676 nt of DNA from Escherichia coli (GTDB taxonomy: Bacteria; Pseudomonadota; Gammaproteobacteria; Enterobacterales; Enterobacteriaceae). Shown one piece after another: positions 1 through 676 of the stretch (its first letter is position 1; the number at the start of each line of letters is the position of its first letter). Location: NCBI RefSeq assembly GCF_003334405.1, contig NZ_QOWM01000057.1, one strand, 5' to 3'. The notes below the pieces were generated by a model. The model was given only the letters and a program-made list of their open reading frames with translations. It ran no database searches and was not told the origin of the DNA. Made by a program: the position numbers and the translations under genes.

Positions 1-676
1 GTAAGTCACTGTGTGGATTATCATAACGGTAGCGGGTGATATCGCCGTCAGGGGCAGTTTCCTGAATCAGACGGCCCCATTCATCATATTCCCGGCGTAT
101 TTCCAGCCCGTCAGGCCCGGTGGCTGACGTTAACTGGCTGTGGTGGTTATAGTAAAACGCCGATGCCCTGCCATCCGGCGTGGTGATGCGCGTGATGAGG
201 CCCGTCACCACATCCGGACTGTATTCTGTTGTCCTGCCTGCGGCATCCGTCTGTGCCCTGAGCCTGCCCACCGCGTCAAACTGACTCTGCGTGACGCTGC
301 CGTCCGCGTGTTCCTTTTTCACCACCCGCTTCAGCCCGCCTTCACCCTGCGTGTGCAGGACTTCACGGCGGTTCAGGCTGTCGGTGATGGTGATGCGGTC
401 CTTCTCATACTGATACGTGTAACTTAAGCCTGCCGGGTTTAGCTGTTCTGTCACCCGCCCGTCGCTGTCGTAACGGTAACAGATTTCCGGTCGGCCCGTG
501 TGACGGTGCGCCACCATCCGGCCCCGGTATTTATCATCGTAAGTAAAGCTGCGCACCTGTGTATTGCTGCGGTCATACACCGCCGCCAGTTCGCCGCGGG
601 GCGTCCAGCCATAGCGCACCAGCGGCGCGGCAGGTAAATTCTCCGGGTATTCCGGGTCGTGCGTCAGCCACACGGC
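1..676 (-). CDS. rhs: Rhs-family YD-repeat protein, internal core fragment (partial at both ends; gene continues beyond both window edges)
   Basis: Hand translation of the reverse complement in the frame with codons at 676-674 ... 4-2 gives 225 codons with no stop: AVWLTHDPEYPENLPAAPLVRYGWTPRGELAAVYDRSNTQVRSFTYDDKYRGRMVAHRHTGRPEICYRYDSDGRVTEQLNPAGLSYTYQYEKDRITITDSLNRREVLHTQGEGGLKRVVKKEHADGSVTQSQFDAVGRLRAQTDAAGRTTEYSPDVVTGLITRITTPDGRASAFYYNHHSQLTSATGPDGLEIRREYDEWGRLIQETAPDGDITRYRYDNPHSDL. It contains repeated YD / YDxxGRL-type motifs (VYDRS, FTYDDKYRGRM, YRYDSDGRV, FDAVGRL, EYDEWGRL, YRYDNPHS), the hallmark of Rhs/YD-repeat cores. I recognise the sequence from memory as closely resembling the E. 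coli Rhs core, but I cannot tell which paralog (rhsA/B/C/D or other) from this fragment, so the symbol is the generic family name. No start or stop codon is present in the window, and position 1 belongs to the next codon downstream. Confidence 0.9.

Follow-up and report, generated by a model that had tools for sequence, protein, structure and literature searches.

The 676-base stretch of Escherichia coli DNA analyzed here (the window) comes from the interior of an E. coli Rhs core gene, one with the rhsC-type allele, and corresponds, almost certainly, to codons 293 to 517 of K-12 rhsC. Over its whole length (676/676 bases, 100% identity), the window matched the reverse complement of positions 730459 to 731134 of the MG1655 chromosome (NC_000913.3), and this stretch lies inside rhsC (b0700), which occupies positions 729583 to 733776 on the plus strand. 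The offset of the window into rhsC is 876 nt (292 codons), its frame is the annotated rhsC frame, and its translation reproduces residues 293 to 517 of the 1397 residues of RhsC verbatim (NP_415229.1 / WP_000015200.1); codon 518 begins at window base 1. The first-pass annotation had placed the window wholly inside a minus-strand Rhs core gene and had regarded it as part of a known system rather than a new one. The exact match to annotated rhsC confirmed the placement, and the window is indeed an ordinary, already known and annotated fragment of a well-known gene; nothing contradicted this identification. The N-terminal adaptor, the protease motif, the toxin, and the immunity gene all fall outside the window. 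The coding segment and the repeat units that it contains are listed in Table 1.

Table 1. Position of the rhsC coding segment and of the RHS/YD repeat units in the 676-base window
Feature	Window positions	Strand	Remarks
Internal coding segment of rhsC (b0700)	2..676	-	Codons 293-517/1397, conserved YD-repeat core; open frame, exact match, NF041261
Weak RHS/YD repeat unit	500..601	-	aa 26-59; PF05593 i-E 0.11, alone not significant
RHS/YD repeat unit	377..472	-	aa 69-100, contains YRYDSDGRV; PF05593 i-E 5.7e-06
RHS/YD repeat unit	230..328	-	aa 117-149; PF05593 i-E 0.00094
RHS/YD repeat unit, register overlaps neighbors	167..280	-	aa 133-170; PF05593 i-E 1.8e-07
RHS/YD repeat unit	107..205	-	aa 158-190, contains FYYNHHSQL; PF05593 i-E 2.2e-05
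RHS/YD repeat unit, cut by window edge	20..88	-	aa 197-219, EYDEWGRLIQE ... YRYD; PF05593 i-E 3.7e-06

When the window was searched by megablast against 5426 complete E. coli genomes, matches were obtained in 3885 of them, the median number per genome being three. Identity of at least 99% was recorded in 590 records, many of them identical over all 676 bases, and 28 of the 30 matches listed at 100% identity carried the annotation rhsC, mostly in derivatives of K-12. The same rhsC allele was also present in many natural isolates.

The complete K-12 gene has the features of a full Rhs protein. Full-length RhsC scored 2683.5 bits against the NCBIfam model NF041261 (RHS_core), for which the curated cut-off is 2000 bits, and the alignment covered model positions 1 to 1261 of 1261; the YD-repeat model TIGR01643 was matched over the whole protein with an E value of 9.1e-41. 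Rhs_assc_core (TIGR03696) was found at residues 1170 to 1247 (83.6 bits versus a cut-off of 32.5 bits), PF03527 was also matched, and the PxxxxDPxGL boundary motif is present as PISNIDPLGL at residue 1238. In the N-terminal 320 residues, DUF6531 was matched at residues 46 to 123 (E 3.3e-18); the literal sequence KPAARQGD is present, and the profile PAAR_motif (PF05488) aligned with residues 2 to 20 only, at a nonsignificant E value of 0.14. The frame of 1397 codons is intact. The G+C content of rhsC, at a locus with a value of 0.52, falls from about 0.60 in the core to 0.46 and then to 0.39 in the last ~600 nt (7184-7777 in the K-12 locus excerpt, L002), and over nt 3601 to 3900, an interval spanning the core/tip boundary, identity to rhsA is down to 54%. 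Judged by this composition and divergence, the 3' end of rhsC is the known variable tip of Rhs proteins. The tip (residues 1248 to 1397, Cys-rich) matched no Pfam or NCBIfam family. Of the papers found, the one mentioning rhsC most often reports only a T186A mutation, which was incidental and had no phenotype.

The first-pass annotation had also taken the surroundings of the window to be an Rhs toxin locus, and the expected architecture was seen in K-12, where the gene order is kdpFABC (on the opposite strand), ybfA, rhsC, ybfB, ybfO, ybfC, ISAs1 remnants, ybgA, and phr. The start of ybfB (108 aa; L002 7777-8103) overlaps the rhsC stop codon by one base, the last of that codon. It is followed by ybfO (L002 8221-9654), a pseudogene consisting of an orphan Rhs core fragment with a different tip, by ybfC (189 aa), and by three ISAs1/H-repeat transposase remnants (ybfQ, ybfL, and ybfD). 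This is the classical layout of an Rhs element, with a core gene, a putative immunity gene, an orphan tip-immunity module, and an H-repeat. Neither YbfB nor YbfC matched an NCBIfam or Pfam family, and in K-12 the 9 kb flanking the window on each side contained neither vgrG nor any other gene of a type VI secretion system (T6SS). Such linkage is common among Rhs effectors delivered by a T6SS and is not strictly required; in an in silico study of enterohemorrhagic E. coli, rhsA to rhsD were orphan genes that lay outside vgrG islands and had no assigned VgrG (PMC7216683). Genomic-SELEX peaks for minor sigma factors have been reported at about positions 732870 (the 3' part of rhsC) and 728638 (upstream of rhsC) of NC_000913.3 (PMC5493296). 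Both peaks are outside the stretch 730459 to 731134 that corresponds to the window; they may bear on how ybfB or the tip is expressed, without bearing on the window.

A search of solved structures turned up none for RhsC itself and returned several relatives of the window. The window translation aligned with residues 213 to 422 of Tse5 from Pseudomonas aeruginosa (8cp6; E 1.7e-36) and with residues 432 to 636 of RhsA from Pseudomonas protegens (7q97), past the plug domain of the latter protein at residues 268 to 386 (PMC8765631); it also aligned with Photorhabdus Tre23 (7pq5), a Salmonella bongori Rhs core (8qjd), and Acinetobacter baumannii Tse15 (8uxt). The repeats of P. protegens RhsA build a closed beta-cocoon of three turns around an autoproteolytically cleaved toxin, the cleavage needs the PxxxxDPxGL/aspartyl protease region, and the N-terminal part binds VgrG (PMC8765631; see also PMC8636562). 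Since the window aligns just past the plug, we infer that it encodes beta-hairpins of the cocoon wall, in an early part of this hollow shell. By analogy with these effectors, the YD/RHS repeats of the window would contribute beta-hairpins to a shell enclosing the C-terminal toxin domain, and the core would end in an aspartyl autoprotease that cuts at PxxxxDPxGL, leaving the variable toxin cleaved inside the shell. The N-terminal region would mount the shell on the VgrG spike of a T6SS, which would then inject it into a neighboring cell, and the product of the small gene just downstream (YbfB in K-12) would protect the producer.

A role in interbacterial competition, as proposed in the first-pass annotation, holds as knowledge of the Rhs family; for the toxin, immunity, and delivery of K-12 RhsC in particular, no documentation was found and no vgrG gene is adjacent, and a literature search returned no work testing the toxicity, immunity, or delivery of RhsC-CT/YbfB. 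E. coli K-12 is not known to have a T6SS, and rhsC is therefore probably silent, or undeliverable cargo, in that strain. It is probably cryptic as a weapon there and mainly a substrate for recombination. The wider proposition that rhsC, although intact, is no secreted weapon in its host and either acts within the cell in a toxin-antitoxin-like manner or serves only as a repeat that promotes rearrangements draws on this lack of a T6SS in K-12, and on the fact that no T6SS or vgrG gene adjoins rhsC there. It would have a parallel in Salmonella, where one report describes Rhs elements as acting as type II toxin-antitoxin modules (PMC7043789), and it accords with the origin of the name rhs, which was given for unequal recombination between the K-12 copies (Lin, Capage and Hill 1984), as well as with the 96 to 100% identity of cores between loci and the existence of mosaics. 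However, the delivery-related features appear to be conserved as a set, the frame of 1397 codons is unbroken, and the allele is found in many natural isolates; a T6SS may be present in at least some of these. We regard this proposition as possible, if rather unlikely; moreover, it concerns what the gene does in one host, not the coding content of the window. That RhsC, in a strain lacking a T6SS and with no vgrG beside it, would still have a secretion-independent cellular role, e.g., an intracellular toxin-antitoxin-like one as in the Salmonella report, and that the highly conserved core in the window would be kept for that role and not for delivery, appears very unlikely.

The window sequence is also present, unchanged, away from the rhsC locus. 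In strain CFSAN061761 (NZ_CP042903.1), all 676 bases were found at 100% identity in an Rhs gene that adjoins yibF-selA, i.e., at the rhsA position (L006 4740-8552, minus strand, 3813 nt; window match, 7001-7676). The first 300 nt of its core are rhsA-like (99.3% identity, versus 97.0% to rhsC). Of the eight 300-nt blocks that make up core nt 301 to 2700, five, the three that hold the window among them, are identical to rhsC, and two more match rhsC and rhsA equally. Past nt 2700 the core is rhsA-like again, and an IS3 element truncates the gene. This mosaic looks like the outcome of gene conversion between rhs loci. Because the identical 676 bases occur at the rhsA locus of this strain, the locus and the tip are unreadable from the window, and it could in principle come from another Rhs locus, such as a yibF/selA-linked rhsA whose core was converted to rhsC, with a different tip and immunity gene or in a gene broken by an insertion sequence. 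Such an origin is nevertheless quite improbable, given that rhsC was the annotation of 28 of the 30 matches listed at 100% identity and that strain 300709, one of the two exceptions listed, also has its copy at the kdp-ybfA locus.

Strain 300709 (NZ_CP025903.1) offers a second kind of mosaic. Its Rhs gene (L007 4353-8552, minus strand) is at the rhsC locus, and its core, which equals that of K-12 rhsC over the first 2700 nt, is fused to a stretch of 1506 nt that is 99.7% identical to K-12 ybfO. Neither the primary tip nor ybfB is present, and the fused gene is followed directly by ybfC; this is an apparent core-orphan recombination that would have swapped the expressed toxin tip. The orphan tip carries a variant of the boundary motif, PVQYIDSMGL (DSxGL for DPxGL), both in ybfO and in the Rhs protein of 300709 (residues 1238 to 1247), and the upstream DPIGL is retained. 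Both mosaics fit the known behavior of Rhs genes, namely, core-core and core-orphan recombination. With core recombination in both CFSAN061761 and 300709, the attached tip cannot be told from a core window of 676 bases, and, as far as these sequences indicate, the window alone fixes neither the locus nor the toxin tip.

Membership of the window in the Rhs family was evident from profile searches of its translation. The profile comparison proposed in the first-pass annotation aligned the Rhs core along the full minus-strand translation, at positions 301 to 525 of 1261 of NF041261 (E 1.5e-132). The score of the window alone, 443.7 bits, is below the curated cut-off of 2000 bits only because one sixth of the model is covered. 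TIGR01643 (YD_repeat_2x) was matched in three stretches (E 6.6e-19; best at aa 181 to 216), and Pfam RHS_repeat (PF05593) gave five matches at E ≤ 0.001 plus a weak sixth, so that the multiple YD repeats noticed at first pass are borne out. YD repeats are also found in the Tc toxin component TcB/TcC and in metazoan teneurins, which belong to the same YD-shell fold family as Rhs proteins (PMC8765631), and the window did show weaker matches to the teneurin-like structures 9ifo and 9pt5 (E about 2e-11), with a faint TEN_YD-shell match (E 0.02) in the C-terminal part of RhsC. An origin of the repeats in a TcB/TcC component or a teneurin-like protein is nevertheless extremely improbable: the best structural relatives of the window were all T6SS Rhs effectors, and the identity of the window to E. 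coli rhsC, together with the match of whole RhsC to the equivalog RHS_core model from position 1 to 1261 of 1261, refutes it.

At the nucleotide level, the window has a G+C content of 59.9%, and six-frame translation gave a stop-free minus-strand frame of 225 codons running from window position 676 to position 2, as the first-pass annotation had stated, with 6, 9, 10, 13, and 15 stops in the remaining five frames. The open reading frames in those frames are short, the longest being one of 95 aa on the plus strand, and the plus-strand open reading frames are antisense shadows of the coding frame. An end-to-end open frame, in any of the frames, occurred in 25 of 5000 (0.5%) mononucleotide shuffles of the window, a rate that makes the minus-strand frame unusual even at 60% G+C. 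It is not impossible for composition alone to give such a frame, and homology is the decisive evidence that the window is coding. G+C contents at codon positions 1, 2, and 3 of the frame were 0.62, 0.48, and 0.69, respectively. Compared with rhsD, whose product is 72% identical to RhsC in the region of the window and 74% identical overall, nucleotide differences at the three codon positions numbered 44, 42, and 90, and this excess at third positions supports coding constraint on the window frame. The chance that the frame is an untranslated accident of G+C-rich DNA is negligible: even though 60% G+C lowers the frequency of stop codons and 0.5% of shuffles stayed open across the window, this reading is refuted by the E value of 1.5e-132 with which the translation matches a curated protein family (RHS_core), by the substitution pattern relative to rhsD, and by the location of the segment inside an annotated gene of 1397 codons.

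There is nothing of note in the window besides the rhsC coding segment. No Rfam match was obtained on either strand at E ≤ 1, and a terminator scan of the window found none. One sigma-70-like sequence, at window positions 124 to 153 on the plus strand and hence antisense to rhsC, has CTGACG and TATAGT separated by an 18-nt spacer (9/12 matching positions); one such match was seen in the promoter scan versus 0.3 expected in shuffles, and it is probably due to chance. The only repeats in the window are unremarkable: an imperfect direct pair of 19 nt, and an imperfect inverted pair of 15 nt whose members lie 532 nt apart.

The rhs genes are a textbook gene family of E. coli, described since the 1980s, and the window has little importance beyond its correct annotation. 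Since the segment is present in about three copies per genome at 96 to 100% identity, short reads or windows of this kind are unassignable to one locus. The recombination of cores between loci and with downstream orphan fragments matters in that it changes which toxin is expressed.

Among the known Rhs proteins, K-12 RhsC (b0700) shows no difference from the window, whereas in non-K-12 strains the identical core segment joins other C-terminal tips. RhsA and RhsB share the core subfamily and the register of RhsC, and their genes occupy other chromosomal loci and have other tips. Over the window stretch rhsA and rhsB share one sequence, and it differs from the window at 24 of 675 bases (96.4% DNA identity, ungapped), which affects 21 codons, 12 of them synonymously and 9 nonsynonymously (A324V, N330G, T331K, C358R, N394D, G405A, S472N, I485L, and W492L). 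Nine of the 24 differences fall within 39 bases (window positions 560 to 600, RhsC codons 318 to 331, alignment columns 78 to 116), and seven are packed into 9 bases (CAGCAATAC versus TAGTGGCAA), where they result in N330G and T331K. In this sequence comparison, differences spread so unevenly suggest conversion or import of a small tract and not even drift. RhsD represents a second core subfamily, with a homologous core that can be aligned codon for codon over the region of the window.

Beyond the E. coli paralogs, the solved T6SS Rhs effectors are cocoons of YD repeats in which the window matches the repeat region right after the N-terminal plug. They are distant from the window in sequence (E values between 1e-36 and 1e-20 for alignments of about 200 residues), and their N-terminal adaptor domains and toxins are unlike those of RhsC. 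[quoted passage not shown]
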